Shown piece by piece: positions 15,980 through 40,759 of a DNA stretch of 64,000 bases (positions are counted from its first letter, which is position 1; every line of letters starts with the position of its first letter). The stretch comes from Akkermansia sp. GTDB taxonomy: Bacteria > Verrucomicrobiota > Verrucomicrobiia > Verrucomicrobiales > Akkermansiaceae. The position numbers and the translations under genes are program-made. The notes under the pieces are model-generated. The model made no database searches. It was not told the origin of the DNA and saw nothing but the letters and a program-made list of their open reading frames with translations. The stretch spans positions 6,153-70,152 of the forward strand of contig JAFWZG010000039.1 of NCBI GenBank assembly GCA_017517385.1, written 5' to 3'.

Positions 15980-15982
15980 GAA

Positions 15983-17116: not shown

Positions 17117-17250
17117 GTTTGAAATACTGTGATTGGCGAAGCGTGGAAGGTATTGTTTCCTGATTATCCATTATGTTTCACTCAAAATCGATGAGCTGGA
17201 TTCTTTAGTATGCTTATCCTTGACTAAGAAAGAAATAACATTATATCTGT

Positions 17251-18336: not shown

Positions 18337-18354
18337 AGTACAATGCGTAACTTA

Positions 18355-20639: not shown

Positions 20640-20706
20640 AATATCAGTCAGCCTGCCAACAAATTACGTTGTGGTATTGCGTACTCTACGGTTATGTCGT
20701 TTTCTA

Positions 20707-21648: not shown

Positions 21649-21663
21649 GGTTTTATGGGGAAA

Positions 21664-21810
21664 TTATCGGGTTGATAACGGAATATATACGCATTTACAC
21701 CCAAAGAATTCAGCGCTGTGTTTCAGCACTGTATAACTAGCATACGCCAGTAAAAGCCCCCCGTAATTTCCTGTAAGAGGGTGAGTGAGAATCAATGTTT
21801 TTGCTTTCAT
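21664..21810 (-). pseudogene. 5' relic of a third polysaccharide pyruvyl transferase gene
   Basis: Translates MKAKTLILTHPLTGNYGGLLLAYASYTVLK..., matching MKKVYILTHPLTGNYGGLLQAYASYKTLE of 18355-19473, then diverges and stops after 48 codons. Not in the ORF track. Confidence 0.8.
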
Positions 21811-21824
21811 CCTTTAAAATACTA

Positions 21825-22829: not shown

Positions 22830-22846
22830 AACACATTTAGAATTAA

Positions 22847-23752
22847 TTACACACTCTTAACTCTCATCTTAAAATACTCTGTCCAGTAAATCCATTTGAG
22901 GCGCCACAGGTAATGTCTAGCGACCGTATTCGGGTACATTATTGTTTTGGAAAACAAAGGCTGCACCACATCATCAATGGCAGAAACGATTTCCTCGCGG
23001 GTCCACCTGTTATCATATTGACTATCCATGATAGCAAATACGGTTTGCTCTGCAAAATCCCCACAATGTTCAGCCTGATAGCGAATACACTCCAGCGCTT
23101 TGTCATTGAGCATTTTCAAGCCGCCGTGAATGTAAACAACGCCACAATTTATCGGCTCCTCTGTATCATACAAGTACTCAGAACCCGAGGCTTTAATAAA
23201 ATGAGGGTCATAGCTATGACATGAGTCGATAGAAATCTTGAAATCCGTTGTGTTCCACTCATCATTCCGCAGGGGAGTACCATACCACAATACATCAGGA
23301 TCAGAGAAAAGCACCCTATCTGTCTCTGAAAGATAAAGAATGGCAGCCATCTTCTTCCCCCAGATGTGCTTTTCAGCCCAGGTTGTTAGTTCAGGCAGAG
23401 TATTTAGGTAAAAATCCGCACAGTGCTTCCAAGTCAGACATTCCACTTGGAGCCCCCGCTTTCGGAAATATCGAACACCATATTCCGGCTCCCAGGAACC
23501 GTCGGACACAATGACAACTCGAGAAGGCACAACTTCAGAATTACGATACAAACTAAACAACGACGCCTCTACCATGTCCAATGCAGATTTTTTACTGATG
23601 CTCAGGTACGTATAATCACCAACGCTCTTTTCTTTGGCCGGAATTCGGGCAGGAAACACTCTGGCGAGAACTCTGCACGCACGCACAAAGTTCCGCTGGC
23701 TCCAATCTCGCTTCCCCGAGACAGAGCGTATGAAATCTGAGTTATCTATCAC
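22847..23752 (-). CDS. Putative GT-A fold glycosyltransferase (GT8-like)
   Basis: First gene of the locus (GTG start). VLFSDPDVLW (DxD), INCGVV and AEQT motifs. Confidence 0.55.
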   Translation of the reverse strand: MIDNSDFIRSVSGKRDWSQRNFVRACRVLARVFPARIPAKEKSVGDYTYLSISKKSALDMVEASLFSLYRNSEVVPSRVVIVSDGSWEPEYGVRYFRKRGLQVECLTWKHCADFYLNTLPELTTWAEKHIWGKKMAAILYLSETDRVLFSDPDVLWYGTPLRNDEWNTTDFKISIDSCHSYDPHFIKASGSEYLYDTEEPINCGVVYIHGGLKMLNDKALECIRYQAEHCGDFAEQTVFAIMDSQYDNRWTREEIVSAIDDVVQPLFSKTIMYPNTVARHYLWRLKWIYWTEYFKMRVKSV

Positions 23753-26481: not shown

Positions 26482-26542
26482 AATATGATGCTTGATAGAG
26501 ATTACGGCCGGCCAAACAAACACGTAGGCCGAAGCAGCCAAG

Positions 26543-26570
26543 ATTCTACTCTTTGCAGGCCTATTGTCAA
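26543..26570 (-). promoter_or_regulatory. aspS promoter
   Basis: Minus strand TTGACA, 16 bp, TAGAAT. Confidence 0.65.
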
Positions 26571-26603
26571 GACAAATTTGGCCTCTTAAGGAAGAGCTGC
26601 CAC

Positions 26604-26643
26604 AAAAAAGCAAATACGGCGGAGCCTTGTACAAACTCCGCCG
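26604..26643 (-). terminator. Terminator closing the Hsp70-like cluster
   Basis: CGGCGGAG/CTCCGCCG stem, then TATTTGCTTTTTT on the minus strand. Confidence 0.65.
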
Positions 26644-26688
26644 CAAAAATAATCTTTTTCGCCGTTTAGCGACAGGTGGCGAAAAGCG

Positions 26689-28359
26689 TTAGCCCCTTCC
26701 CTCCAGCTTGGCGCGAATGAGCTCTGCGCACTCGGTGTGCCTGTAACGTTCAGCCACGCGAATGGGGGTGCTGCCATAGCCATTGGGCTTATCCGGCTGA
26801 ATGGTCGGAGCAGCCAGAAGCGCCTTCACACAGCCGGCATACCCCTTGTAAGCGGCGTACCAGAGAGGAGGCCATCCGTTATCGTTCGGTTTGTTCACAT
26901 CCGCACCGGCAGCAATAAGAAGCTTCAGGCAAGGTACCATGGTTTCACGCAGAGCAGATTGCAGAGGAGAACGGCCAGAGCTATCAAGCTTGTGAACATC
27001 CGCGCCGGCGTCTATTAGGGCCTTCAGGCATGCGGCATCATTTACTTCAAGTGCCAGGAAGAGGGGAGTCCTCCCGTTATCATCTGTACAATCCGGAGAA
27101 ACGCCGCCGCGGAGAATAGCTTCCACGCTTTGGGCATCCTTCCTCTCCACTGCGTCAAAAAGCATAGCAGGAGTCGCCTCCACACTATTAACTGCACTAT
27201 TAACCGGGGGCAATTCCTCACCCACAAAAAGGGTTGATAAAATCGTATTTGCGATATCCGAGACTTCGTCATCCTTGCTAACCTCCGCTAATGATGACTG
27301 CCACTTGCGATACGGAACCAGCATAAGAGCACCCTCAGCCGCAGCCTCCGGGAAGGACGCCCAAGTACGCGTCTTCAATCCGATACCGCCAGCCAACTGG
27401 GAGGAAATGTATGTCAACACGGGAGATGAACCTATGAGCAATACCATTTCAGGCTTTTCTTTAGCATCCGCCTGCTTGTCAATATCCTGTATGGCCGAGG
27501 CTATACGCTCCACGTCCCGTGTCAGCAATTTCTCGAAATCCGCGCGGTTAATATCGGCGGCTGTCAGTACTCCATTTTTAACAACACGGAAGACGCAGGC
27601 CTCAGCGGCCGACAGCCTGCGCTTCATCTCGCGCACACCGGCAAGAACAGCTGTAGCAGGAGACAACACACCCCCTGCCCCCTGAGCTTTAATCAATTCG
27701 CCCACATAAGAAGCCAACTTTTCATCAATAGCCTCACCACCCGCAGCATTTCCTAAATGAACACTGCGAGTTAAATACCCCTCCGCAGAACTGCGCACCA
27801 CATGGGCAATCTCCGGCGTACCACCGCCCCAATTCACCACCAGAGCACTTGTATTGAACGCCTTTGCGCCACTATAGCAACAATAGGCAGCGCCGGCTGC
27901 CTCCACCTCCGGCACAATCATTACCCGGGGAAATCCAGCGCTTAATGCGGCGGCAGACAACTCTTCCTTCTGAGCGGCCTGAAATCTTGCAGGACACGTC
28001 AGCACGGCCCCTGTAATTTCTACAGCCTCCTGATTTTCATCCTCCTTTACTCGGGCCAGAATCTTTTTCAGGAACTCACGCAGCAAATCACAGGCCTTGT
28101 ACTGCCCGAGCAGACACTTATTACTCCCCAAATGGGATTTGAACGCACGGCAATAAGAGGCCGGATTTTCCAAGCCCATCTCGTCAGCATCCTCACCAAA
28201 CACCAACTGCCCATCCTCACAGAGGAAAGCAGTAGAGGGAATAGGTGCATCATAGCGGCCAAGACGGAAGAAATACGGGCGACCGGTGTTCACATCAGCC
28301 GCCGCAAGGGTTTTTGACGTGCCGAAATCTATAGCAAGTGTTACTTCTTTTTTTGTCAT
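26689..28359 (-). CDS. Hsp70-like ATPase domain (degenerate) fused to ~5 ankyrin repeats (Hsp70-D)
   Basis: AIDFGTSKT, VLTCPARF..AQK, PEVEAAG, NWGGGTPE, GGEAID, RADFEKL, LIGSS. No substrate-binding domain. C-terminal GRTPLF, GRSPLQ and GWPPLW ankyrins. Confidence 0.85.
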   Translation of the reverse strand: MTKKEVTLAIDFGTSKTLAAADVNTGRPYFFRLGRYDAPIPSTAFLCEDGQLVFGEDADEMGLENPASYCRAFKSHLGSNKCLLGQYKACDLLREFLKKILARVKEDENQEAVEITGAVLTCPARFQAAQKEELSAAALSAGFPRVMIVPEVEAAGAAYCCYSGAKAFNTSALVVNWGGGTPEIAHVVRSSAEGYLTRSVHLGNAAGGEAIDEKLASYVGELIKAQGAGGVLSPATAVLAGVREMKRRLSAAEACVFRVVKNGVLTAADINRADFEKLLTRDVERIASAIQDIDKQADAKEKPEMVLLIGSSPVLTYISSQLAGGIGLKTRTWASFPEAAAEGALMLVPYRKWQSSLAEVSKDDEVSDIANTILSTLFVGEELPPVNSAVNSVEATPAMLFDAVERKDAQSVEAILRGGVSPDCTDDNGRTPLFLALEVNDAACLKALIDAGADVHKLDSSGRSPLQSALRETMVPCLKLLIAAGADVNKPNDNGWPPLWYAAYKGYAGCVKALLAAPTIQPDKPNGYGSTPIRVAERYRHTECAELIRAKLEGRG

Positions 28360-28387
28360 TGCAGGAAAAAAATATCTTTAGTCCATA

Positions 28388-30310
28388 TTAATATGCGGTA
28401 GCGGCAGCTTTCAGCAAAGCCTCACACTCAGCATGCCCATACCGCCCGGCCAAACTCAGCGCGGCATCTCCCTCCGGAGTCTGCTTATGAATATCAAGAC
28501 CACCAGAGGTAAGAAGCAGGCGCAGAACAGAGGCGGCCCCGGTACTGGCGGCATGGTGCAGCAGAGTCCAACCATGCTCATCCACGCGGTTCACATCTGC
28601 CCCGGCATGCAGAAGCAGCCTCAAGCAATCCAGCTTTTCAGCGAAGGCGGCGGACCACAGAGGGGTCCAGTTCAGCTCATTTGCGGCCTCTAAGCTTGCG
28701 CCGGAATATAAGAGATTACGGAGCACCCTGGCATGCCCGGCATGAGCAGCCTCGTGCATAGGAGTATTGCCGCCATAGCCGGCCTTCGCCGGGTCTATCC
28801 CGGGAGAGAGCAGCAGCATCCCCACAATAGCCTCCTGCCCACAGGCAGCGGCACGGCATAAAGGCAGTTCGCCTCGGCTATTGGGCCGGTTCACATCCAC
28901 TTGCCCGGCATTCAACAGCTCACGAACAACTGCCTGCTTATCAGTATAAGTTGCTGCCCAAAGAGGAGTCCAGCCCACAGCATCAGCTGCGTTCACGTCC
29001 CCGCCGTTAGCTATAAGCTTACGCAGCAACTGCACATCCCCCTCTGCTGCAGCGGAGACAACGTCCGCCGGGGTGGTGGGAAGCGGCTTCGCGGGGGGAG
29101 GCTCAGTAGCAGGGCCCGGAGGAACAGGAGGCAATGCCGGATCCGAAGGAACAGGCGGTAACACCGGCCCCGGAGGAACAGGCGGTAGCACGGGCTCTCC
29201 AACCGGCTCAGTCGGAACGGGCACGAACTCAGCCTCAAAAAGCTCTGTAAACAGCTTCTGCTGCTGAAGCTTAATACATGCGCCCTTTACTGACGCCCCG
29301 ACAGAACGGTACAGATGCACTTTAGCATTAGGAAGTTCCGCCGCAATCATGCGTCCGGCTGCAGGAATATCCGCCCCCGGTCCACTCAGGAGGATCTGCT
29401 TAGGAGGCGCGCCTCGAAAATTTGTTCTGACAAAGCGGCGCAAGGCTGCTCCGGCCTGCTTCATGTAAGGAGCGAGAAGCTCCTCATACTCCTCAACCGT
29501 ACCGGGCACCGTAAGCTTCTTCCCTCTCAAACTCAGGCGAATTTCAGCTTTACCCTCTGTGAGTAGCTGTTTTCTGAACTCGCGAACGAGATTCATAAAA
29601 CGGGGCCAGGAGAGCCCGGTCACCTTAGTCTGAACGGCCATTTTAGCAAGTAGGTGCATCGCGAGGGTATCATCCAGCTCTTCGCAGCCTACAGAGCACA
29701 CATTAAAAGAACGCCCCAGCTTACAGGAAGAAAAATCGGAGGCCACGGTCACCTGCACGGCTTCCAGAGATCCATCCCCCCAGAACAGCATCACAACATC
29801 CTGTGCAGCAAACACCTTGCGCCCGCCGTACATGCAGACGGAAACCAGCGCCTCGGACTGAGATATGAGCTCTACCGCAGGAAAACCAGCCGCCAGAGCA
29901 GCCTCCTTCAAAAGCTGCCGCTGTGCAGCGCTGAATGCGGCAGGACAAGTCAGCATCACGCCGGAAATCTGACGCCCCTCAGCCATAGAGGAGCCATTCA
30001 CTTTGCGAAGAATCCACGCAAGATGCTCCCGCACTAAATCAGCCGCGGTAAACTCCCCGAGAAGAGGTGCCGGGCTCCCCAGTTTCATCTTATATGCGCG
30101 GCAGTAACCGGCAGGCTCCTCAAGGCCCAGCTTCTCAGCCTCATCACCAAAACATAAGCGCCCACCCTTCATCAGATAAGCAGAAGAGGAGGCACAAGCG
30201 CCACTACTGCCCAAGCGAAAAAAACGCGGCTTCGCACCCGGCACAACCTCAGCTACAATAGATGAGGTTGTGCCGAAATCCACGGCCAGTCTGATATATT
30301 CGGCAGACAT
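28388..30310 (-). CDS. Hsp70-like ATPase domain (strongly degenerate), Pro-rich linker, ~7 ankyrin repeats (Hsp70-C)
   Basis: AVDFGTTSS, LTCPAAFSAAQR, SQSEAL, FWGDGSLE, GCEELDD, LSGPG. Polyproline linker. GWTPLW, GELPLC, GNTPMH and NWTPLW ankyrins. Confidence 0.85.
   Translation of the reverse strand: MSAEYIRLAVDFGTTSSIVAEVVPGAKPRFFRLGSSGACASSSAYLMKGGRLCFGDEAEKLGLEEPAGYCRAYKMKLGSPAPLLGEFTAADLVREHLAWILRKVNGSSMAEGRQISGVMLTCPAAFSAAQRQLLKEAALAAGFPAVELISQSEALVSVCMYGGRKVFAAQDVVMLFWGDGSLEAVQVTVASDFSSCKLGRSFNVCSVGCEELDDTLAMHLLAKMAVQTKVTGLSWPRFMNLVREFRKQLLTEGKAEIRLSLRGKKLTVPGTVEEYEELLAPYMKQAGAALRRFVRTNFRGAPPKQILLSGPGADIPAAGRMIAAELPNAKVHLYRSVGASVKGACIKLQQQKLFTELFEAEFVPVPTEPVGEPVLPPVPPGPVLPPVPSDPALPPVPPGPATEPPPAKPLPTTPADVVSAAAEGDVQLLRKLIANGGDVNAADAVGWTPLWAATYTDKQAVVRELLNAGQVDVNRPNSRGELPLCRAAACGQEAIVGMLLLSPGIDPAKAGYGGNTPMHEAAHAGHARVLRNLLYSGASLEAANELNWTPLWSAAFAEKLDCLRLLLHAGADVNRVDEHGWTLLHHAASTGAASVLRLLLTSGGLDIHKQTPEGDAALSLAGRYGHAECEALLKAAATAY
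29111..29191 (-). repeat. Three 27-bp tandem repeats encoding (V/A)LPPVP(PG/SD)P
   Basis: Plus-strand units AGGGCCCGGAGGAACAGGAGGCAATGC, CGGATCCGAAGGAACAGGCGGTAACAC and CGGCCCCGGAGGAACAGGCGGTAGCAC. Confidence 0.8.
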
Positions 30311-30472
30311 ATTATCTAAGTAATTTGTGAGAAAATCCGTTTAATACTAGGCGATTCCCAGCACCACACCGGATAAAGCTTACCGGATTCCCTTATACCA
30401 TACGCATTATCGCGTTGTCAATCATATTTTGAAGTGCATATACCCCCCTGCCGAAAAAATAGAACGCCAGCC

Positions 30473-30625
30473 TCACGAATTATTCTGGAACAAAGCGTTG
30501 TAGATACCACGCAGCAGCAGAGCAGCCAGAACAGTCACCACAAAACCACCACCGGCCTCCATGCGAATAAGCACAGCAGCCATTATCACCATAGCGAAAA
30601 TCATTATAAACAGTACTACTTTCAT
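30473..30625 (-). CDS. Unannotated 50-aa two-TM membrane protein (paralogue of 35396-35542)
   Basis: MKVVLFIMIFAMVIMAAVLIRMEAGGGFVVTVLAALLLRGIYNALFQNNS*. Shares MK.V....ME.G....L.LRGIY.A...N with the other copy. Below the ORF-track cutoff. Confidence 0.8.
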   Translation of the reverse strand: MKVVLFIMIFAMVIMAAVLIRMEAGGGFVVTVLAALLLRGIYNALFQNNS

Positions 30626-30751
30626 TGTTTTTTTTCTTTCTTTTTAAGTTTTTCAGGAGAGCGCCCTATGTGAGCTATCATATATTCTCCCCCTCTGCTT
30701 AAATAGACACAGCATCTCCATTCTTCGTTCATTCTTTTTTTATTCTACAGT

Positions 30752-30793
30752 AAAAAAACTAACACCGCCACTCCCGCACAAGGAGAGGCGGTG
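30752..30793 (-). terminator. Terminator after Hsp70-B
   Basis: CACCGCC-(T/A)-CTCC stem followed by TTAG and T7 on the minus strand. Confidence 0.7.
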
Positions 30794-30854
30794 CTGCAAA
30801 TACTGGTTAAAACAGCGGAAGTTACGGAGAATCCACGCAAGAAAACTTGCATGA

Positions 30855-32807
30855 TTATTTATTGAAAAGGCCGCTAAACCATTTCTTAATCTTCTTAGCA
30901 CGGAGATATGCAGAGGCCCCACTGACGCCGGCTTTGCTGGCGTCTTCCAGCAAGCGAAACCCTCTACGCTGAAGCTCAACAGAACCGGTCTGATCCGCTT
31001 GCTCCAGATAGAGCCGTGCCAATTCATACCCGGCGCACTTATCGCCCTTACTAAGGGCGATGGAATACCACTTCGCCGCGGCGTTCAAATCCTTTTTCAC
31101 ACCGTAACCCAGCCAATAGCAAAGGCCCATACGGCGGGCGGCTGAAGCATCCCCACGCTCTGCCTTTTTCTTGTATTCCGCTGCGGCCTGCGCCGGCTCA
31201 TAAATTATCCCCGCTTCGTCAATATACGGGGTCATTTTTTCCTCATTGAAATTTCTTTCACACTTCCAATCATATGCGCCACAGTTTTCGACCACGCCAA
31301 GATGACGCACAGCACTCATCTTTACAATTTTGGCCTTCGTGCTCCCCAGATAAATAGCATCATCCAGCCACTTATGAGCAGAAGTAAAGTGGAACTGCTT
31401 CAACATAGCCACGGGAGTGTCATCTATAATGCAGAGATGACAAGCCCCCAGCTGCGCCATAGCCTCCACGTTACCACGTACAGCCGCACGCCGATACCAT
31501 TTCGCGCAAAGAATATAATCCTTCGTCTTCTTGAGCATCACCGAGGCAGCGTTTTCCAACGCGCCGGGCTCGCCCCGCACCGCTGAGGCTGCCAACCAGT
31601 TCTCCACGCCATTCCTCAACAGCTCCTCTATTTCGTCAGCATAAGGTTCTTTCGGCTTAACCGGCTGCGCGGGAGGCGGAGGATAAGGCGTAGGCGCAGG
31701 CGTAGGCGTGGGGGGACGCTTCACCGGCGCCTCCGGGGCCTTTGCCTTTTCAGGCGGACGCGTTGTAAGAGCCGCTCCCATCACCACGGCTGCACGAGCC
31801 TTGTTCCACGTTCGGGCCGGCAAACCGGTAACCCGCTCAAGCTCCTTACGTATGCAGGGAATAAGCGCAGTACCGCCCACCAACACCAGCATTTCAGGCT
31901 GTAGGGATTCCGGAAGCCCGCTTAACAGGTTCTTTACGGCATCCGCCGCAGCGGATACATCAGAATGTATACTCTTCTCGAAATCAGCACGTTTCACCTG
32001 AGCAGAAAGCAGCCCACCGGACGTCACCTGATGAAAAGCCCCGGTCTCTGCAGAGGAAAGCACCATCTTCAGATTGCGAACGCCCTGAGCAAAACGCTGC
32101 CAGGACATATGCTCCGGCAGAGTCTTGCCCTCCAGTTGTTCCATGACAAGCTCACTGAGGCGATCATCAAACACCTCGCCGCCCATGCTGTTATTGCCGA
32201 AGGCTGCGCGCTTCTGAGCATTGATTTTCTTGCCACTGCGAGAAACGAGCGCCACGTCTAGTGTACCGCCACCCCAATCCACCACCAGGGCATTATTCTT
32301 AAACGCCTGAGCGCCACTGAAGTGGCAAAAGGCAAAGCCCGCAGCCTCCGGCTCAGTAATGAGTTTTACTTCCGAAAGCCCGGAGGCAAGCGCCGCATCC
32401 GTCAGCTGTTTTTTCTGAGCAGCACTGAAGTTCACCGGGCAGGTCAGCACAGCACCGCTGATTTTCATTTTATACAGAGTGGCATCATCCTTTACCCGGC
32501 GCACGAGGTGAGATAAGAACTCACGCACCAAATCCTGTGCTGTATAATGCCCCAGCACGGGCGCTGTACTACCCAGCTTCATCTTAAATGCACGGCAGTA
32601 GCAGGAGGCGTTCATCTCCGCCATATCGTCCGCATCATCACCAAACAAGAGGCTGCCGTCTTCCTGCAAATAAGCAGTTGTAGGAATCAAATCCGCATTT
32701 CGGCCCATTTTCAGAATACGAGGCTCGCCACGCTCATCAGCATAAGCAATGAGCGTCTTGGTTGTACCGAAGTCTATGGCTAAAGTGATGGAAGGAGAGG
32801 TACTCAT
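30855..32807 (-). CDS. Hsp70-like ATPase domain (intact motifs), Pro-rich linker, Sel1-like repeats (Hsp70-B)
   Basis: AIDFGTTKT, TEPEAAG, DWGGGTLDV, GGEVFDD, LVGGTALIP, AVVMGAA. Sel1 motifs AKWYRRAAVRGN and GLCYWLGYGVKKDLNAAAKWY. Confidence 0.88.
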   Translation of the reverse strand: MSTSPSITLAIDFGTTKTLIAYADERGEPRILKMGRNADLIPTTAYLQEDGSLLFGDDADDMAEMNASCYCRAFKMKLGSTAPVLGHYTAQDLVREFLSHLVRRVKDDATLYKMKISGAVLTCPVNFSAAQKKQLTDAALASGLSEVKLITEPEAAGFAFCHFSGAQAFKNNALVVDWGGGTLDVALVSRSGKKINAQKRAAFGNNSMGGEVFDDRLSELVMEQLEGKTLPEHMSWQRFAQGVRNLKMVLSSAETGAFHQVTSGGLLSAQVKRADFEKSIHSDVSAAADAVKNLLSGLPESLQPEMLVLVGGTALIPCIRKELERVTGLPARTWNKARAAVVMGAALTTRPPEKAKAPEAPVKRPPTPTPAPTPYPPPPAQPVKPKEPYADEIEELLRNGVENWLAASAVRGEPGALENAASVMLKKTKDYILCAKWYRRAAVRGNVEAMAQLGACHLCIIDDTPVAMLKQFHFTSAHKWLDDAIYLGSTKAKIVKMSAVRHLGVVENCGAYDWKCERNFNEEKMTPYIDEAGIIYEPAQAAAEYKKKAERGDASAARRMGLCYWLGYGVKKDLNAAAKWYSIALSKGDKCAGYELARLYLEQADQTGSVELQRRGFRLLEDASKAGVSGASAYLRAKKIKKWFSGLFNK

Positions 32808-32895
32808 CTTGTAAAATAATCAGTAGGTTTATAAGTTAACGAAAGCCCTTTTCAGCTTGTATGACGCCCCAACAGGCAGAATTGTTCATGCAATT

Positions 32896-35349
32896 TTAAT
32901 ATCTCGCACGCCTCATGGCCGCCTCCAGCAAGCGAACACACTCAGTGTAACCTCTGCTCCGAGCATACTCCAAATGCGTTTTCCCATATTGGGTTGCGTG
33001 TACATTTATATGCGGGTACTGTAATAAAGCCTCCACCATCGGCACGTCATTATTTTCTATAGCCACCCTAAGAAGGCTTTCACTAGCTGAATTGACCAAT
33101 TCATACTTGGCGCCGGGAGCTGTCACAAATATCCGTACAGCTTCCGCGTCATGCTTCTCCACTAATTTGGCAATGAAATAATTATCACAGCGGTATCCCT
33201 TCTGTACAAGCATTTGCAAATCCGCACCGTTCAATGTACCATGCATTATACGAGCCTCCAGCGCACTTGCAACAGGGCTACTGGTAAATACTTCACCATT
33301 CCAAGATGATACCAACCACTCATTACTTGCCATACCCGGATACTCCACGAACAACAACACAAACATAAAAGCACCTAGGAGTATCCCGCCCATCCCTATG
33401 AAGATGGATTTTGTATAGTCAGTATGCCTACGGCCACAATATCTGGCAAACATTATTAGGCCGCATAAATAGACCAACCCAATAAGCACCCCTAGCAATA
33501 CATGACCATTGTATATCATATAGGTCAGCACCAAGGCCAGTAGAACAAGCAGCAGCAACAACATCTTCGCCACATACCAGAACATGCGCAGCTTGGCCCT
33601 CTTACACCCGGCAACAGAAGCACGATAACATAACGACAGAGGCGATTTAGCCGTATGCAAAAAAAGCTCATAAAGTGCTTCCGGGTGCCCATTATCAGCA
33701 GCAGTTTTATACCACGTCAATGCATCATCGGAGCTCTTTGCCACAGCGGTGCCATTTTCATACATCTTAGCTATGCGGTACTGAGCATCAGTCACGCCCT
33801 TATCAGCCGCCCTTCGCAGCCAAAGGTATGCCTGACCGGCATCTGCGTCGACGCCGATACCATCCTCATAACAACGCCCAAGCGCCCACATACCATAAGG
33901 ATGCCCTTTCTCCGCGGACTTCCGATAATACCCCACCGCTTTCATGGAATCAGGGCTGAGCAGAGTCCCCTTCTCTGCCCCTATGCCTAGGCGGTACAGA
34001 GCATCAGCATTTCCGGCATCCGCCGCGCGCTGATATAGTCCGAGAGCCTTTTTCGCATCCTTTGTAGTGCCAATGCCTTCTTCATAGCAAAGGCCAAGGC
34101 TGAACATAGCGGGGCAATAATCACGGGCAGCAGATTTCGTGAGCCACATGACCCCCTCAGCTTCATTATGATTATTCAAGCAACTCTTCCCCACCTCATA
34201 CTGAGCGCGCCTGTAACCACTCTTGGCCAGCACAAGCAGTTTCCCGGAATCCTGAGGAAGCGGCTCGGAATCCACCTCCTCAGTCGCAGTCGCCTCTGAA
34301 TTAGCAAGAAGAGCTGCGCCCATTACCACAGCCTCACGTGCTTTTGCCCATGTACGGGCAGGAAGGCCTGTAACAGCCTCCAGCTCGCGGCGTATGCAGG
34401 GGATAAGAGCTGTACCCCCCACTAGTACCAGCATCTCCGGCTTACAATCTGCCGGCAGCCCCGCCATGAACTCCTTCACCGCGGCTACAGCAGCAGTCAC
34501 GTCTCTCGCTATCAGTTTTTCGAACGTGGCACGCTTCACCTTCAGAACAAGCGGGCTTCCTCCCACCACCATTCGCAATACACCCTCTTCACCGGCAGAA
34601 AGCGACACTTTCAGAGAGCGCACATTTTTCATCAGCTCCGGCATACTAAGGCTGCTCACCTCCATACGAGAAGCCAGCTCGCCCAGCACATACTCACCTA
34701 AACAATCATCAAAAACCTCGCCACCCACCGTATTGAGGCCAAAGGCATAGCGCCTATGGGAACGAATACTTTTCCCTTGGCGGGTAATGAGTGCTACGTC
34801 TAGCGTGCCACCTCCCCAGTCCACCACCAGAGCATTTTTTCGGAAAGCCTCTGTGGTGCAGCTGAAACAGAAGGCACTACCGGCAGCCTCCGGCTCCGTC
34901 ACAAACTCCACCTCCGGCAGCCCCGCGGCCAAAGCGGCTTCTCGCAGCTGGTGAATCTGCGCTTTGCTAAAATCCACCGGGCAAGTCAGCACCGCACCAT
35001 TTATCTGCACGCCAAGCATTGTGGCATCGGCCTTCACCTTCTGCAGCAAGTACGCCAGGTACTCCCGCACCAGCTCCTGTGCCGTATAACGCCCCAATAC
35101 AGGAACCTTGCCTCCCAGCTTCATCTTAACACCCCGGCTGTAATTCCCGGGATCTATCACAGCCATATCGTCCGCATCCTCGCCAAACAGCAGGCTACCG
35201 TCTTCCTGCAAATACGCGGTCGTCGGTATCAAATCCACATTTCGCCCCATGCGCATAACGCGGGGCTCGCCCTTGTCATCAGCGTAGGCCACAAGTGTTT
35301 TCGTCGTTCCGAAATCAATTGCCAGAGTAATACCCGAATGATAGCTCAT
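32896..35349 (-). CDS. Hsp70-like ATPase domain (intact motifs), ~6 Sel1 repeats, 3 TM helices, ankyrin repeats (Hsp70-A)
   Basis: AIDFGTTKT, TEPEAAG, DWGGGTLDV, GGEVFDD, LVGGTALIP. Sel1 e.g. AMFSLGLCYEEGIGTTKDAKKALGLYQRAA. Hydrophobic block MLLLLLVLLALV...LFVEYP. Terminal ankyrins. Confidence 0.88.
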   Translation of the reverse strand: MSYHSGITLAIDFGTTKTLVAYADDKGEPRVMRMGRNVDLIPTTAYLQEDGSLLFGEDADDMAVIDPGNYSRGVKMKLGGKVPVLGRYTAQELVREYLAYLLQKVKADATMLGVQINGAVLTCPVDFSKAQIHQLREAALAAGLPEVEFVTEPEAAGSAFCFSCTTEAFRKNALVVDWGGGTLDVALITRQGKSIRSHRRYAFGLNTVGGEVFDDCLGEYVLGELASRMEVSSLSMPELMKNVRSLKVSLSAGEEGVLRMVVGGSPLVLKVKRATFEKLIARDVTAAVAAVKEFMAGLPADCKPEMLVLVGGTALIPCIRRELEAVTGLPARTWAKAREAVVMGAALLANSEATATEEVDSEPLPQDSGKLLVLAKSGYRRAQYEVGKSCLNNHNEAEGVMWLTKSAARDYCPAMFSLGLCYEEGIGTTKDAKKALGLYQRAADAGNADALYRLGIGAEKGTLLSPDSMKAVGYYRKSAEKGHPYGMWALGRCYEDGIGVDADAGQAYLWLRRAADKGVTDAQYRIAKMYENGTAVAKSSDDALTWYKTAADNGHPEALYELFLHTAKSPLSLCYRASVAGCKRAKLRMFWYVAKMLLLLLVLLALVLTYMIYNGHVLLGVLIGLVYLCGLIMFARYCGRRHTDYTKSIFIGMGGILLGAFMFVLLFVEYPGMASNEWLVSSWNGEVFTSSPVASALEARIMHGTLNGADLQMLVQKGYRCDNYFIAKLVEKHDAEAVRIFVTAPGAKYELVNSASESLLRVAIENNDVPMVEALLQYPHINVHATQYGKTHLEYARSRGYTECVRLLEAAMRRARY

Positions 35350-35395
35350 AATGATATGTCAGGAGAGAGTGAAAGACGGCATAGCTGCGCCATGC

Positions 35396-35542
35396 TCAGT
35401 TTTTGTACATAGCACTGTAAATACCTCGTAAAATCAAACAAGGAACAACAGCAAAATAAGTGGGAGCACCTACTTCCATACATAAAAGCACGACAGCTAC
35501 TGTTAATATAACACCAATAATCGCAAATACAACAATTTTCAT
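35396..35542 (-). CDS. 48-aa two-TM membrane protein
   Basis: MKIVVFAIIGVILTVAVVLLCMEVGAPTYFAVVPCLILRGIYSAMYKN*. Start reassigned to 35542 by alignment with the paralogue. Confidence 0.8.
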   Translation of the reverse strand: MKIVVFAIIGVILTVAVVLLCMEVGAPTYFAVVPCLILRGIYSAMYKN

Positions 35543-35666
35543 CTCATTTTTCCTTTCTTTTTTATTTTTTTCTGGGAGCAAGCCATATAGGCTAACTTTT
35601 ATTCACCATTCTGGTTACTCCGACGCTATCACCTCCCGGCACGTTCAAGCATTTCATTCAGTCCAT

Positions 35667-35705
35667 AAAAAAAATCCCCAGCACAGGTAACCCATGCGCC
35701 AGGGA
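35667..35705 (-). terminator. Terminator after the second dynamin-like gene
   Basis: Minus strand TCCCTGGCGCA/TGTGCTGGGGA (with G-U pairs) followed by T8. Confidence 0.7.
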
Positions 35706-35798
35706 GTGTGATAAGGAAATGTAAAAACACTACATAATGACCCACTCAGAAACCACAAAAAATCTGATAAAAACAGGCGAGAACAATGGAAGTATTCA

Positions 35799-37424
35799 TC
35801 AGTGAGAAGAGGTAATCATGAGGTGAGAGTATACGGCACGCACTTTAGCAGCACATTCGCGGGCAAACTTATTAGGCACAAACGCAAGCAGGCCGGCAAT
35901 CTGCTGCAAGGTCTCCACATTATCAGCCGGCCGTGGCTGTGCTTCCGTAAGTACGAGGTTGGCACAGCGATCCACAATCTCCAACTGGGCAGGATTCAGC
36001 CAGCGGCTGCGCTCCTTCCAGTCCTGAAGAAGATACAAGGCATCGTCCATCAGCTGAACCCGCTCTGCTATGGAGCAGCGGAGCATATCAATGGAGAGTA
36101 ACGCTTCTTCCATGCGGGCAAGCTCAGCCCGGGCCCGAGAAGTACGCTCCTCCGTCTGCTTCCGCAGCTGAGTAGAGCGCAGCTCGTTAGCGACCTCGGA
36201 GAAGTAATCCACCTCCATTCGCTGAGCCTCAATAACGTCATCCAGAGCATAATTCACCTCTTGGAGGAGAGTCTGCACCTTACTGCGAATCTGCCGCAGG
36301 CTGATAACGGCCCTGCGCTTGAAGAATGAAGTATCCAACAGGTGGCGAAGGCGGGGGATGCCACTGAGCTGCATGGTCATAGCGGCGGCATCCTCCGCGG
36401 AGGCCGGCTGCTTATCATACAAGTAATGGAGCATCATGCGGAACGAGGAAAGGGGCAGCTCCAGCTCACGCAGAGAGCACCACAGGGCGTAAATGGCAGG
36501 GTATTTTTCCTGCCAGCGCACTTCATTGCGCTTTACTGCTTTTCGCAGGTCATCAGCAGTATCAAATGAGGCTAGTAAATCAAGCACGTCCAGCCAGAAG
36601 CTTCGCGGAGCTACAGCGGCAAGCAAGCCCAAAGGTGCGCTCACCGGCACAACCTCAGAAAGCAGGTGAGAAAACTGGCCGCGAAGAGTCGCCACATGCT
36701 CCTCCACGGTAGCAAGCGCCTCATCCGCCGAAGCCCCGGCGGAGGCATTCCAATAAAGGTCATCCCAGAGGTGCATCACGCCTACGCAGTTATACGTCTC
36801 ATACCCCTGCAGGCCCATCTGACGGAACTTTTCAAGGGCCTGAACGTCCTCTTCACGCCCAACATGGCCGAATACATAGAGCAGAGCATCCGTATTTCCA
36901 CCGCAAAGGAACTGCTGCGCCACGGCCTCATGGAAATCCACCGCGGCGCCGATACCGGGAGTATCAATGATATTCATCTGGCTCACGATGGGGGCATCGG
37001 AATAGAACTCCAGGTGGTTAACGCCTGCTACCATCTGCTCCACATCTGAGCCTTTTCCGCTCCATTCCTTGAGCCTAGCGAGGGGGTAACGCTCCGGCTG
37101 AGAGTTTTTCCAATAAGCAGAGAATTCCTCACAAGCGGAGCCGGTGCCGTAAGTAATGTGGTTCACGGTGGCAGTCGTTTCCTCGGTACCGGTGACGGCC
37201 AACTTCTTACCGACCAGCGCATTAATGATACTACTTTTACCCCGCTTCATGTAGCCGAACACGGCTATTCTGAAGGGGTTATCCATATTACGCACGAGCT
37301 CACGCAAGCCCAGCTCCCATTCATGCACCTGCACACAGGGGGCGAGCATATCAGCAAGCTTGAGCAGGTTCTGTGCATATTCCCGGCGGTAACGCACGGC
37401 ACCCAGTTCTACTTGTTCGGACAT
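35799..37424 (-). CDS. Bacterial dynamin-like GTPase (IniC/DLP2-like)
   Basis: G1 GYMKRGKSS, G2 TEETT, G3 IDTPGIG, followed by a helical coiled-coil stalk. Confidence 0.88.
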   Translation of the reverse strand: MSEQVELGAVRYRREYAQNLLKLADMLAPCVQVHEWELGLRELVRNMDNPFRIAVFGYMKRGKSSIINALVGKKLAVTGTEETTATVNHITYGTGSACEEFSAYWKNSQPERYPLARLKEWSGKGSDVEQMVAGVNHLEFYSDAPIVSQMNIIDTPGIGAAVDFHEAVAQQFLCGGNTDALLYVFGHVGREEDVQALEKFRQMGLQGYETYNCVGVMHLWDDLYWNASAGASADEALATVEEHVATLRGQFSHLLSEVVPVSAPLGLLAAVAPRSFWLDVLDLLASFDTADDLRKAVKRNEVRWQEKYPAIYALWCSLRELELPLSSFRMMLHYLYDKQPASAEDAAAMTMQLSGIPRLRHLLDTSFFKRRAVISLRQIRSKVQTLLQEVNYALDDVIEAQRMEVDYFSEVANELRSTQLRKQTEERTSRARAELARMEEALLSIDMLRCSIAERVQLMDDALYLLQDWKERSRWLNPAQLEIVDRCANLVLTEAQPRPADNVETLQQIAGLLAFVPNKFARECAAKVRAVYSHLMITSSH

Positions 37425-37447
37425 AGGAATATAGGTAAAAAGTTTGA

Positions 37448-37966
37448 TTAATTTGAAACGGAGGAGGATTCAGCGGGCATATCCAGCTCCACCTCCTGTT
37501 TGCGCAGGAGCTGAGAGCCTATTCTAACGCCCGTGGAAAATGAACGGGTAACGATGGGGAATGCGCCGGGGGCAAGCACGCGGTTCACCTTCACGGCCCG
37601 CTGCAAGGCAGGCGTCCAATCAGCGGAGCGCAGCAGCTCCACCCCCTGCGTTTTCAGCAAGGCTCGCAATTGATCTGCAATTTCACCGATGGCGGCTCGC
37701 TCCGCGGGAGGATAAACTGACAAGCTTTCCAGTTCATCCAAAAAATCCACCATCAGCAGTATGCGCGTTGCAGGGGCGTCAACAGGAGCCTGCAGGCCGG
37801 CAAGGCGGCTGAGAAGAAAATCCTGCAAGTCTCCCTCCGGCACTCTGCGGGCGATATCCTGCTGAAGGGCTAATTCATCCTCCAGAGCGCGCCCCTCGGG
37901 AACGGCCTCCTCAGAGGCGGTTCCCGGCTTTCCGGAGAAGAGGTATTTTGAGAGAAACTCCCACAT
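37448..37966 (-). CDS. GrpE-like protein
   Basis: Helical N-terminus, then LKTQGVELL...WTPALQRAV...V.....GVRIGSQLLRKQEVEL, matching the GrpE head pattern L...GV....FDP..H.AV...V.....GY.L..RLLRPA.V.V. Confidence 0.65.
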   Translation of the reverse strand: MWEFLSKYLFSGKPGTASEEAVPEGRALEDELALQQDIARRVPEGDLQDFLLSRLAGLQAPVDAPATRILLMVDFLDELESLSVYPPAERAAIGEIADQLRALLKTQGVELLRSADWTPALQRAVKVNRVLAPGAFPIVTRSFSTGVRIGSQLLRKQEVELDMPAESSSVSN

Positions 37967-37997
37967 GGTTCCAATTACTTCAGGCGTTTAAATGGTA

Positions 37998-39872
37998 TCA
38001 AGCAGGAAAAAGCACCGCAAGAACATCATTGAAGAGCTTCTTTCCGGCAGCCAGCTCAGTCTTGGCCTCACGCAGCTCGCGAGCTGAGATACCGGCTCGA
38101 TTCTGGATTTGCTGAGCCTCTCGCTGCAAGGCGGCCTCTTCATTCCTGAGGTACTCTTCCACGGATTCCGTAGCCTCGGTTGCAGCGCGATTGTGCAGTA
38201 AGCCTACAGAGCGGGAAATCTCCTGACCGGCCACATTCAGCGCGCGCTCCAGCAGGGAAATCAGAACCTGCTTTTGCTGCTTCAGGTTAGCCTCATTCAC
38301 ATTACTGCCGCCCTGTACACCACCCCAGATAGCACCGATTGCCGCACCGGCAAAACCGCCAAGAGCCGTACCAACAATCGGCACAACGGAGCCAACGATA
38401 GAGCCCACAACGTATCCGGCACTGGAGCCAAGAGATACACCCATGGAGGCACCCCGCACCTGCTCATAGAGCTTTGCCCCGTTCACGCCGTCCTCTATCG
38501 GGCTGAGCACGTTCGCCACTCGAGCGTCCGTCATGGCGCAATTCTCCACGGAAAGCTTACTTGCCGTAACCTCGTTTGTGAGACGGCAAATTCCTTTACT
38601 TACGCCCTGTGCATAGGTATCTACAATGGCCCGGAACTCATTCTTAAGAGACTCTAAGAGGGCTTCTTTCAACGGCAACTGCCCGGCAGAGCTATCACCC
38701 TCCAGAAGCTTCTTAAGACTGCCGAAATCCTGGCAAGCGTTCACCTTTGAGATAATCTCCATATACATGGCACCGCCCAGCCCCACAGAGGTGCAGCTCT
38801 GCATAGCCTGTTGATAGTTCAAATCCATCATACGCTTGAGGGGCGTGAGATAATTATTTTTAATATTCAGCTTCCACTCAGTGAAATCAGCTTTGGCTTT
38901 TTCCGCCTGCTTCATCAGTGCGTCCAGCTCTTCCTGAGCCTCCGTGTCCAGCATCTTGCTGCGAGAAGTAAGCAGAGTGCGGCAGCGCTGAAGCACCGGT
39001 GTCCACAACTGGGCCTGACGCTTCACGGCCATCATATTCTTCTCTATCAGCATCTTATCACAGCAGAAGGATTGCAGGTTCGGATACCCGCTGTCATCCA
39101 AATCATCCTCATCAGCATCCGGGTTAAACACATCCGCACAATCTAGGAGGAAATAGAGGCAGCCGGTCTTATAAAAATCCGGAAAGTTCTCATTAATGAT
39201 GGAAAGGTTATTCTCGCGACGGCGCTGAGCATCAGCCATCCCTATGGAGAGCACTTTGGTCTGCACGAAGAAGAGGTTGGACGTCACCTCCAGCACATCC
39301 TTAATGTACTGGCACTCCAGATTGCCGAAGGGGGCTTTATGATCCGTTACAAAGAATACGGCATCCGCCTGAGATACATAGCGATAAGTAATGGCTCGGT
39401 GGGCCTTGTACATACCGCCCAAACCGGGCGTATCTATCAGACAGAAACCACTCTTCAGGAACTCAGAGGGGCATGTTATCTCGATATAATCCACGCCCTT
39501 TTCATTCAAGGGATTGCCCTTTTCAGTACCATATGCCGTCACTTCACAAGCCGGAATGAAGAGGGGCTCCCTTGCAGGGGTGCCATCCTCTGCGGGCAGA
39601 AAGTGCACAGCGTAGGTAAGATGCTCACCGTAGGTCACCCGGTACACACAGGATGTGGCAATCCCGGTATCCACCGGCACAAGATTTTCCACCCCCAGAA
39701 GCGCGTTGACGAAAGAAGATTTGCCTTTCTTCACTTCACCCAGCACCACGATATTAAACAAGCCTTTCTCGAACTCATCAAGCTTGCTCATGTAATGCCC
39801 GGATACCGGCTCTCCGGCCAGTTTCTCATGCAATTTTGCCAGTTGTTTTAAAGACGATACGATATTTTTCAT
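37998..39872 (-). CDS. Bacterial dynamin-like GTPase (IniA/LeoA/DLP1-like) with glycine-zipper membrane paddle
   Basis: G1 GEVKKGKSS, G2 GIAT, G3 IDTPGLG. Hydrophobic Gly-rich hairpin GVSLGSSAGYVVGSIVG...GGFAGAAIGAIWGG. Confidence 0.9.
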   Translation of the reverse strand: MKNIVSSLKQLAKLHEKLAGEPVSGHYMSKLDEFEKGLFNIVVLGEVKKGKSSFVNALLGVENLVPVDTGIATSCVYRVTYGEHLTYAVHFLPAEDGTPAREPLFIPACEVTAYGTEKGNPLNEKGVDYIEITCPSEFLKSGFCLIDTPGLGGMYKAHRAITYRYVSQADAVFFVTDHKAPFGNLECQYIKDVLEVTSNLFFVQTKVLSIGMADAQRRRENNLSIINENFPDFYKTGCLYFLLDCADVFNPDADEDDLDDSGYPNLQSFCCDKMLIEKNMMAVKRQAQLWTPVLQRCRTLLTSRSKMLDTEAQEELDALMKQAEKAKADFTEWKLNIKNNYLTPLKRMMDLNYQQAMQSCTSVGLGGAMYMEIISKVNACQDFGSLKKLLEGDSSAGQLPLKEALLESLKNEFRAIVDTYAQGVSKGICRLTNEVTASKLSVENCAMTDARVANVLSPIEDGVNGAKLYEQVRGASMGVSLGSSAGYVVGSIVGSVVPIVGTALGGFAGAAIGAIWGGVQGGSNVNEANLKQQKQVLISLLERALNVAGQEISRSVGLLHNRAATEATESVEEYLRNEEAALQREAQQIQNRAGISARELREAKTELAAGKKLFNDVLAVLFPA

Positions 39873-39913
39873 AACGGTAAACTTTGCGGTTAAGTTTAAA
39901 AATTGTTTTAAGG

Positions 39914-40759
39914 TTAATACAGGTCCATATCCTCCGAGATGTTCATATCCAGGTCATTATCCACCCCCGAATCCGGCAAGTCGTCATCATCATCATTGAG
40001 GCTAGCAAGCCCCGGAGAGTACCCGGCAGCCAGAGCCGGCTCAAGTGTAGTATCATCCGCCATAAAGTCCTCAATCATGCCACCGATGGTCTCACACACC
40101 ATTCCCAACGCTCCACCGGGTGTCACAATTTCAGAAACCTGAGAGATAATGGAACCCGCAGAGGACAACAGAGAATCCGTAAAACTTTCATCCAGATTGG
40201 CTACCTCAGGAATATCCGGAGCTTCAGTGGTAGAAACCATGAAGAAGTTCGAGTCGGACCACGCATCCACAAACTGCTCGTACGGATAACTGCGGCAACA
40301 GCCGGAGCCGGGATCCGTCACTATCACCTGCACATTCTGAGGGTCTCTCACATCCACACCGGTCACAAGAAGGGCATGATCCGGCACCTGCCCCAAAGCG
40401 CTATCCTCATAAAACTCCTGCAGGGGTTCCCAAAGCTCACCGGAATCCACACCGACTATCACCTGATGCCCCTGTGCCAACTCATTCATAAGAGTGGCGA
40501 CGTTACCCGAGAGGAACGTCTGAGTGCTCACGCCGTGCAGTTCAAGCAGCTTACCGATATCCCCCATGGGGGTACCATTCGTTGTCAGCAATCCATGCTC
40601 AAAAGCTACATCCATAAGCTGCTGCTCCGTTACATCCACCCCGAACATATTGAGGATGAGCTGCTGGCTTTTAACAGCACAGGTATAATCGGTACCCTGC
40701 TGAATTTCATCGGGAGAGAACGGGCTGATAGTCTGGCCGTACACTGAATCTGTAGTCAT
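39914..40759 (-). CDS. C39-like papain-fold cysteine peptidase with acidic C-terminal tail
   Basis: QQGTDYTC (oxyanion Gln and Cys), DHALLVTG (His), TDPGSG (Asp). Tail DDDDDLPDSGVDNDLDMNISEDMDLY. No signal peptide. Confidence 0.8.
   Translation of the reverse strand: MTTDSVYGQTISPFSPDEIQQGTDYTCAVKSQQLILNMFGVDVTEQQLMDVAFEHGLLTTNGTPMGDIGKLLELHGVSTQTFLSGNVATLMNELAQGHQVIVGVDSGELWEPLQEFYEDSALGQVPDHALLVTGVDVRDPQNVQVIVTDPGSGCCRSYPYEQFVDAWSDSNFFMVSTTEAPDIPEVANLDESFTDSLLSSAGSIISQVSEIVTPGGALGMVCETIGGMIEDFMADDTTLEPALAAGYSPGLASLNDDDDDLPDSGVDNDLDMNISEDMDLY

Follow-up and report, generated by a model that had tools for sequence, protein, structure and literature searches.

Paired dynamin-like GTPases, head-only Hsp70 proteins and a C39-type peptidase in Akkermansia and its relatives: a candidate surveillance module of the cytoplasmic membrane

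What brings two dynamin-like GTPases, a papain-like peptidase, a GrpE-like protein and a series of proteins with the ATPase head of Hsp70 into one bacterial locus, and what could such an assembly do? The question is raised by a stretch of 64,000 nucleotides from Akkermansia sp. (assembly GCA_017517385.1, contig JAFWZG010000039.1, positions 6,153 to 70,152 of the forward strand), referred to here as the window, which belongs to a 2.66 Mb Akkermansia-like assembly and in which ten open reading frames (ORFs) follow one another on the minus strand, all in the same orientation, from 40759 down to 26689. An original prediction, made from the letters of the window, had described ten co-oriented genes, their domains and three terminator-like hairpins, all of which were recovered in the same places, and had taken them for a membrane-surveillance or conflict system. 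The reading favoured here is that the locus represents a real accessory module of the cytoplasmic membrane, complete in itself, with an immunity-like surveillance role against invaders or membrane damage and with the mechanism proposed below; taken as a whole, this statement is given a probability of about 50%.

The claim that the genes make up one conserved multi-gene system is borne out by other genomes. When one genome per species was scanned with an alignment of the first dynamin (Dyn1), 57 loci were found, in which hidden Markov models (HMMs) built from four Akkermansia modules detected the second dynamin (Dyn2) in 51, the C39-type peptidase in 50, Hsp70 heads in 47 and the GrpE-like protein in 33. 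Dyn1 is linked to at least one partner in 55 of the 57, and the four core genes (Dyn1, Dyn2, peptidase and Hsp70 head) stand together in 42. The loci come mostly from the Planctomycetes–Verrucomicrobia–Chlamydiae (PVC) bacteria, being found in Akkermansia, other Verrucomicrobiota, Kiritimatiellae, Lentisphaerae/Victivallales and Planctomycetota, and also in one ‘Bacteroidales’ metagenome-assembled genome (MAG), one ‘Doudnabacteria’ MAG and two Bacillaceae. Fifteen loci are short of one or more core genes: the two from Bacillaceae have no partner, several are cut by contig ends, and three (L018, L045 and L046) have no head in the stretch examined. Three same-genus genomes have GrpE-like gene, peptidase, Dyn1, Dyn2 and one or two heads, an order unlike that of the window, and their proteins are 26–45% identical to the window's. 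When the loci were clustered all against all, no other gene family proved to be a widely conserved neighbour, and the module is therefore self-contained.

Evidently, the arrangement is far beyond chance. The notion that these are unrelated neighbours thrown together by accident, which the splitting of the locus by three terminator-like sites and its housekeeping surroundings might invite, is refuted by the conserved linkage, kept across at least four phylum-level groups; it is further opposed by fusions between the components and by the Hsp70-head family itself, which occurs at no other site in the window's genome (the housekeeping dnaK and grpE lie elsewhere), so that hardly any weight is left to it.

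The module is rare, being found in approximately 4% of the sampled genomes. With the Dyn1 profile at E ≤ 1e-30, it was detected in 12 of 301 genomes of the phylum and in 10 of the 251 that make up a Planctomycetota sample; within the genus, 3 of 21 further genomes have it, besides the window's own. In the phylum of the ‘Bacteroidales’ MAG a Dyn1-like match was obtained in 7 of 301 genomes, and four of these were examined: three have a lone dynamin, and one, on a 3.29 Mb contig, has a full variant, with peptidase, dynamin, head, a YbjN-like gene, dynamin and a head fused to an FGE-sulfatase domain. In this Bacteroidota-type variant the YbjN-like gene (L104:6746-7168, 140 aa) comes after the first head and is followed by the second dynamin. 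The module also appears to be fast-evolving and highly divergent, with Dyn1 only 29–36% identical between genomes whose AspS proteins are 77–88% identical.

Dyn1 (37998–39872, 624 aa) and Dyn2 (35799–37424, 541 aa) match Pfam Dynamin_N with E-values of 6.4e-22 and 5.2e-19, respectively. In both, the GTPase domain is of the dynamin type, and its G1 and G3 motifs (GxxxxGKS and DTPG) are kept in 56 members of the Dyn1 family and 49 of the Dyn2 family; Pfam Dynamin-like_hel_bact matches neither protein. The closest solved relatives of the Dyn1 profile are the bacterial dynamin-like protein (BDLP) of Nostoc (2j68, E 2.4e-26) and IniA (6j72, E 2.1e-23). Dyn1 has a putative, Gly-rich hydrophobic paddle at residues ~475–525, a hydrophobic segment seen in 45 of 56 members, and Dyn2 lacks it, since a hydrophobic segment beyond residue 300 occurs in just 2 of 49 members. 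To judge from these profiles, a putative paddle in one partner and none in the other is the asymmetry of heterotypic bacterial pairs. Two more Dynamin_N-type ORFs lie on other contigs of the window's genome (G000:C40:4656-5225 and G000:C54:5513-6124), in open frames of 649 and 668 aa, away from the module.

A pair of this kind also suggests a role outside immunity. Membrane repair has been proposed for DynA, IniA/IniC and Cj-DLP1/2, Hsc70 acts on coats, and a chloroplast Hsp70 with a GrpE-type factor reportedly acts on VIPP1 oligomers. By analogy, the locus could encode a non-immune machine for envelope stress or membrane maintenance, in which the dynamin pair would repair or reshape the membrane, the heads and the GrpE-like protein would run a chaperone cycle of assembly or disassembly for the dynamin polymer or for its clients in the membrane, and the tails would target different membrane sites or clients. 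The identity of the best solved relatives, BDLP and IniA, fits this explanation, as do the membrane features found throughout the module, that is, the putative paddle of Dyn1, the anchors of the GrpE-like family and the transmembrane (TM)-like segments of the tails. It is the strongest rival of the favoured reading, held with less confidence than that reading; further evidence that bears on it, from the distribution and surroundings of the module, is considered below.

The Hsp70-type proteins are four in the window. H70A (32896–35349, 817 aa; Pfam HSP70 E 4.1e-27, profile positions 113–373 of 599) has a nucleotide-binding domain (NBD), four Sel1 repeats, three TM-like helices and ankyrin (Ank) repeats, and H70B (30855–32807, 650 aa; E 2.5e-29) has an NBD, a Pro-rich linker and Sel1-type repeats. 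H70C (28388–30310, 640 aa; E 5.8e-5) joins an NBD with degenerate motifs to a Pro-rich linker and ankyrin repeats, and H70D (26689–28359, 556 aa; E 3.4e-16) joins an NBD to ankyrin repeats; the repeats are recognised by Pfam in all four. In none of them does the HSP70 match extend past profile position 373 of 599, and a profile made from 58 heads of the family can be aligned with the NBD of DnaK only (2v7y, E 4.5e-61, chain residues 2–348). Because the matches are limited to the NBD, the heads are truly without a substrate-binding domain, as had been predicted; neither this domain nor its lid was found, and the tails consist of Sel1, Ank and other domains. The actin-fold NBD itself is well preserved, with six catalytic residues (D-K-E-D-G-T) kept in 52 of the 58 heads. 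The catalytic motifs are intact in H70A and H70B; with respect to the family consensus, H70C carries E152Q, D177F and T182S, and its branch in the NBD tree (1.8) is longer than those of the other three heads of the window; H70D carries D177N and an altered adenosine motif.

The tails are the variable part of the system, a role that the original prediction had assigned to the repeat domains. In the tree of heads, paralogues cluster by locus, the A+B and C+D pairs of the window grouping with the closest Akkermansia locus; the heads of H70A and H70B are 61–63% identical. Two loci (L032 and L041) have pairs of heads that are 93–94% identical and whose tails are unrelated, being alignable over at most 24–43 residues. 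It appears from such alignments that heads duplicate locally and swap their C-terminal halves. A set of 55 tails matches 54 different Pfam families, the most frequent domains being Sel1 (10 tails), ankyrin (9), the C-terminal domain of ribosomal L12 (5) and FGE-sulfatase (3), followed by Dynamin_N, NosD and the DnaJ zinc finger (2 each), with TPR also among the types. TM-like segments occur in 11 of the 55; in H70A three such helices lie at residues 589–668, between the Sel1 and Ank parts. One of the fusions deserves separate mention, since it joins two core components: in a member of the Verrucomicrobiales, a 1064-aa ORF (L051:15609-18800) carries a head fused to a full-length dynamin, and a second head–dynamin fusion, in another Verrucomicrobiales genome (L055:20790-22361), runs off the end of the locus. 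The full-length fusion is direct evidence for a joint action of heads and dynamins.

The GrpE-like protein (37448–37966, 172 aa) has no Pfam family. When its 34 relatives were compared with 14 true GrpE proteins by hhalign, the two profiles matched with a probability of 94.3% (E 1e-7) over GrpE columns 57–163, a range that spans the four-helix bundle and the beta domain. For the ESM Atlas model of the protein, the closest structures include a GrpE cluster (TM 0.54). A model of the complex between the H70B head and the GrpE-like protein scored an ipSAE of 0.69 (runs of 0.69, 0.67 and 0.75), and the best of three controls scored 0.00; 116 of 157 solved complexes attain the mark applied to such scores, as do 2 of 215 mismatched pairs. 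Contacts agree between runs to at least 90%, and the pLDDT of the partner is at least 84. The modelled interface lies on head residues 33–39, 60–65 and 235–268, which we take to belong to lobes IB and IIB, the part of DnaK that GrpE contacts. The model is a likeness to DnaK–GrpE docking, not proof of binding. Taken together, the profile comparison, the complex model and the Atlas model point to homology with the four-helix bundle and beta domain of GrpE and to binding of an Hsp70 NBD, and they support the view, already present in the original prediction, that the small protein is a divergent GrpE and a putative nucleotide-exchange factor for the Hsp70 heads of the locus.

An N-terminal TM-like segment is present in 23 of the 34 GrpE-like ORFs, and absent from the window's copy and its closest relative. 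The gene is confined to the branch formed by Verrucomicrobiota, Kiritimatiellota and Lentisphaerota. Two observations concern other GrpE and J-protein genes. A locus of Candidatus Kuenenia (L049), in which no GrpE-like gene was detected, has a J-domain gene at 233–1036, just upstream of the C39 gene; and several Verrucomicrobiales genomes have second, weaker GrpE-family matches (G007:C1:1924541-1925008 and others) in frames of 363 to 1649 aa, which suggests that other non-canonical GrpE fusions exist.

The first gene of the locus encodes the C39-type peptidase (39914–40759, 281 aa), whose match to Pfam Peptidase_C39_2 (E 2.2e-4, 22.3 bits) is slightly below the 24-bit cut-off. Within the family, 44 of 52 members match this model (best E 1.6e-10) and 13 match Peptidase_C39; a search of the PDB with the C39 profile gave no match. 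The residues Q21, C27, H128 and D149 are kept in 98–100% of the 52 members, as expected of a papain-like fold, in which Gln and Asp accompany the catalytic Cys and His. The window's protein has an acidic C-terminal tail, no hydrophobic segment and no signal-like N-terminus. No ABC transporter is fused to it, encoded in the locus or conserved at its flanks, so that the pairing with an exporter typical of bacteriocin systems was not found. By its sequence, the peptidase would be a cytoplasmic, standalone, papain-like enzyme of the C39_2 type.

These properties bear on a further explanation. Proteins with ankyrin or Sel1 repeats are characteristic of bacteria associated with hosts, and the processing of exported peptides is a task of C39 peptidases; the locus might thus be a module for host interaction or vesicle export, with Ank and Sel1 tails as eukaryote-like factors and dynamin-driven vesicles that deliver them to an animal host. 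The Ank and Sel1 tails of the window agree with this, and so do NCBIfam matches to Legionella Ank effectors, themselves driven by the repeats, a tail of H70A that may put Ank repeats across the membrane, and the presence of the organism in animal gut metagenomes, where near-identical DNA was found in runs of 9 studies, possible source runs included. On the other hand, the peptidase has neither a signal peptide nor a transporter fusion, the heads are cytoplasmic ATPases, the tails of other loci carry FGE-sulfatase, L12 C-terminal, DnaJ and other domains in place of host-mimicking repeats, and the module is also found in MAGs whose record titles name lakes, offshore sites and other non-host sources, as well as in a marine isolate. 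This explanation is consequently held to be improbable.

How, then, could the parts act together in an immunity-like module? Its conserved core consists of the heterotypic Dyn1/Dyn2 pair, the C39_2 peptidase and one to four head-only Hsp70 proteins with interchangeable tails for binding or anchoring, to which one branch adds a divergent, usually membrane-anchored GrpE-like exchange factor. Each head-plus-tail protein would be an adaptor or sensor driven by ATP and would bind a specific target through its tail. The private GrpE-like factor, as its homology and the complex model suggest, would open the head and reset its nucleotide state; a dedicated GrpE implies that nucleotide exchange is the regulated step. 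The nucleotide state might in turn gate the recruitment or assembly of Dyn1/Dyn2, a step that we infer because of the BDLP relatives and the head–dynamin fusions, and the pair would tether, fuse or seal the membrane. The peptidase, to judge by its catalytic residues, could cleave a component or a bound target and so bring about activation or release.

The immunity-like role is plausible, and a conflict role is favoured because the module is rare and divergent and swaps its tails. These same traits are not what the maintenance explanation would lead one to expect: a presence in so few genomes, a Dyn1 that diverges strongly in a genus whose AspS is well conserved, and repeated local duplication accompanied by tail swapping. 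The neighbouring genes outside Akkermansia point in the same direction. FGE-sulfatase fusions lie upstream of the module or co-oriented with it, joined to a kinase (L056), a caspase (L055) or a GYF domain (L036), and architectures of the caspase– and kinase–FGE-sulfatase type are typical of predicted conflict systems, which, together with the FGE-sulfatase tails, tells against a maintenance machine. The two fusions encoded directly upstream of the module are L055:7306-9237 (caspase–FGE-sulfatase) and L056:6987-8990 (kinase–FGE-sulfatase). Other co-oriented neighbours are GYF–TM2 (L048), PrsW proteases (L035 and L039), trypsin (L043) and DO-GTPase2 (L035 and L065).

Several observations weigh against the immunity-like reading, and some of them favour maintenance. 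The flanks contain no restriction–modification, CRISPR or toxin–antitoxin genes and no recognisable defence island, no relative was found in the viral contigs of IMG/VR, and the Akkermansia loci have housekeeping or glycan neighbours, at times with extra stand-alone Sel1 or Ank genes. When 137 flanking ORFs were compared with PADLOC, the recurrent matches (4 members each), among the first 25 of 59 families by member count, were to models that fit four Ser/Thr-kinase neighbours also seen with Pfam. In several Planctomycetota loci a gene for an extracytoplasmic function (ECF) sigma factor is found directly upstream; among all loci, sigma genes so placed include L052:7382-8020, L054:7269-7865, L051:6501-7052 and L063:7853-8518, and a cultured carrier of the sigma-linked version is Aporhodopirellula aestuarii (L066). 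In L052 an unassigned 283-aa ORF follows the sigma gene, and similar upstream ORFs occur in seven loci, mostly of Planctomycetota, so that a sigma/anti-sigma pair may control the module; such a link is as compatible with an envelope-stress regulon as with immunity and, together with the housekeeping flanks and the lack of a defence island and of viral copies, it counts for maintenance. In L018, the locus most closely related to the window's, no Hsp70 head was seen within 13 kb. As to the GrpE-like protein, Pfam GrpE (PF01025) does not match it and finds only the true grpE, located elsewhere in the window's genome; the NCBIfam GrpE model PRK14142 reaches E 0.007 and 15.9 bits with a cut-off of 233, so that by either model the protein falls outside the GrpE family. 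The support for homology lies at the level of profiles only. Moreover, a four-sequence profile searched against the PDB places the GrpE of Mycobacterium tuberculosis first with a weak E of 0.087, the 34-sequence profile finds no GrpE there, the complex score may lean on the model's memory of solved DnaK–GrpE structures, and with our own HMM the gene went undetected in every Planctomycetota locus. In L018, 4 kb downstream and past a convergent M16 peptidase gene, a 998-aa protein with ~22 ankyrin repeats is encoded (L018:9792-12788).

Is the module, then, a known system under another guise? That no characterised system matches it in full, as originally predicted, agrees with both the database and the literature searches. 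On the genes of the window, PADLOC gave only weak LeoA and LeoBC matches on the dynamin GTPase domains (LeoBC 57.1 and LeoA 52.5 bits on Dyn1, 38.6 and 32.4 on Dyn2), partial and mostly limited to the G domain, and full-length matches to the LeoA and LeoBC models are absent. In a full-text literature search, which covered neither subscription journals nor the source tables of Kaur et al., no description was found of a module that combines dynamin, Hsp70 head, GrpE and C39 peptidase.

Among the closest known systems are the GTPase-centred ones predicted by Kaur, Burroughs, Iyer and Aravind (eLife, 2020), in which paired GTPases are described with HSP70, GrpE and an HSP70 without the peptide-binding domain, and whose GAP1-N2 carriers include planctomycetes and verrucomicrobiae (PMC7159879). 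The locus could therefore be regarded as a plain member of the DO-GTPase/GAP1-N2 conflict systems, all the more so as DO-GTPase2 genes adjoin the module in L035 and L065. As far as that source describes them, the two share paralogous GTPases in pairs, GrpE, HSP70 without a substrate-binding domain, TM-rich parts and variable repeat or binding domains, together with an accessory vocabulary, in the GAP1-N2 systems, of FGS/FGE-sulfatase, GYF, trypsin and kinase (PMC7159879). The present module differs from what is described there in its dynamin-like GTPases, in having a C39_2 peptidase as a core gene and variable domains fused directly to the head, and in the lack of GAP1, FNIII, tubulin and full-length HSP70 (PMC7159879). 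Dyn1 and Dyn2 match Dynamin_N and not the Pfam models of DO-GTPase1/2 at E ≤ 0.01, models that do detect true members in L017, L035 and L065, no Pfam family for GAP1 or FNIII is found on the ten proteins of the window, and the C39 peptidase is foreign to the Kaur systems. The words ‘dynamin’ and ‘C39’ are absent from the main text and two supplement files of that paper (PMC7159879). Plain membership is thus very improbable, more so than a host-directed role. L017 (G011:C26:12500-25247), of the same genus, holds a different dynamin system: two Dynamin_N genes come after a DO-GTPase2-like gene, and neither Hsp70 heads nor a C39 gene are present. CoCoNuT systems were also considered as relatives and set aside, given that their Hsp70-like domains, in the parts of the article that treat them, sit in a different, McrBC-based context (PMC11090510).

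HcpA, which enters the next comparison, is presumably a Sel1-repeat protein. The BDLP pairs (Cj-DLP1/2, IniA/IniC, DynA and Nostoc BDLP) share with the module the side-by-side genes, a paddle, putative here, in one partner and the G motifs. Their roles lie in membrane repair and, for DynA, in phage resistance (PMC8844932), and the Campylobacter pair is reported to share its operon with an HcpA-like gene (PMC6104087), which counts in favour of maintenance. No BDLP-pair operon with Hsp70 heads, GrpE or a C39 peptidase is reported in the literature searched. The LeoA/LeoBC dynamin-type anti-phage system, which we take to be Eleos, likewise consists of paired dynamin-like GTPases in an accessory module; it differs in gene content, and PADLOC holds no model for the other components found here. 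With the DnaK–DnaJ–GrpE cycle the module shares an NBD with mostly intact catalytic residues, a GrpE homologue that, by prediction, spans lobes IB and IIB, a J-domain gene beside the module in L049 and DnaJ client-binding domains fused to two heads; the differences are the missing substrate-binding domain and lid and a GrpE without a detectable long N-terminal helix that is often anchored in the membrane. On the strength of these comparisons, the module is matched by no PADLOC system and is distinct from DO-GTPase/GAP1; it resembles the known GTPase-centric HSP70/GrpE systems in the way it works, and it contains a BDLP pair.

A bolder version of the immunity-like reading is that a chaperone-style nucleotide cycle replaces the STAND or AAA switch in a new type of prokaryotic immune system, in which an array of Hsp70 heads with rapidly swapped tails would capture proteins of invaders or of damage, a private, membrane-anchored GrpE (in other lineages a J-protein) would set the threshold, and the dynamin pair and the protease would execute the response at the membrane; this version is speculative and is put forward with little confidence. 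Functional coupling of Hsp70 and dynamin exists in eukaryotic membrane traffic, and the module, if the proposal is true, would give it a bacterial precedent in PVC bacteria. Bacterial dynamin-like proteins are still poorly understood, their triggers and partners being mostly unknown; the module supplies them with definite partners, namely ATPase heads, an exchange factor and a protease, natural fusions included, and so opens the recruitment and regulation of a bacterial dynamin pair to direct testing. The Hsp70 ATPase head, for its part, would serve here as a modular switch to which exchangeable binding domains are attached. If the role is immune, the mechanism would act on membranes in a way new to current defence catalogues and would be present in gut Akkermansia; if it is repair, a new kind of regulated membrane-maintenance machinery would be at hand in the PVC bacteria, a group noted for unusual membranes. 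In either case the module is a strong candidate for experiment.

Less conserved are the micro-proteins, which the original prediction had counted among the components. They are present in the window, and in this respect the prediction holds; they are specific to its genome and lie outside the conserved core. The candidate two-helix membrane micro-proteins mic1 (35396–35542, counted from MKIVVF; 48 residues) and mic2 (30473–30625; 50 residues) are paralogues, 42% identical over 48 residues without gaps (E 3e-12), have two hydrophobic stretches each and similar A-rich leaders, and each ORF heads one Hsp70 pair. A three-gene cassette of micro-protein, head and head has been duplicated in the window's genome, and the degenerate heads of the second cassette may serve as regulators or decoys. 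An HMM of the micro-proteins gave no match in any of the other loci, not even at E 50, and a search with mic2 at E ≤ 0.01 gave matches in 2 of 61 genomes of the genus, one of them the window's own, with both paralogues. The other match (genome G003, E 0.0086) lies inside a 217-aa frame on an unrelated contig and was not counted as a homologue.

The ten genes are plausibly laid out in three transcription units, each ending, on the minus strand, at a terminator-like hairpin. The first unit, from the peptidase to Dyn2, ends at 35667–35705 with a hairpin and a U8 tract (RNA fold of –22.1 kcal/mol, z –2.61), the second at 30752–30795 with a hairpin and a U7 tract (–26.1 kcal/mol, z –3.25), and the third, before aspS, at 26603–26645 with a 13-bp hairpin and a U-rich tail (–25.8 kcal/mol, z –4.07). 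Only the last of the three is listed by a simple consensus scan for terminators. In one study, RNA-library contigs from two metatranscriptome runs reach 25 and 16, respectively, of the 30 bins into which the locus was divided, which is compatible with expression, no proof of it.

The flanks are occupied by aspS on one side and, on the other, by a carboxynorspermidine-synthase-like gene, followed by genes for aldehyde and alcohol dehydrogenases. The upstream neighbour had been named a spermidine dehydrogenase; it is instead a protein of the saccharopine dehydrogenase family, whose best NCBIfam match is carboxynorspermidine synthase (1.1e-127, below the cut-off of the model). In five complete genomes of the same genus, aspS and the polyamine gene are not adjacent. 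The listed aspS ORF (24628–26646) has a TTG start, and its true start is probably internal, ~50 codons downstream, because the homologues of ten same-genus genomes align only from residue ~50–56; a promoter-like site (11/12) is found at 26570–26543. Beyond aspS, at 12153–23752, runs a minus-strand series of glycosyltransferase genes with a Wzx-type flippase, in part of which (22–24 kb) the GC content falls to 0.41–0.47 from ~0.55 around it, and the whole stretch looks like a variable surface-polysaccharide cluster.

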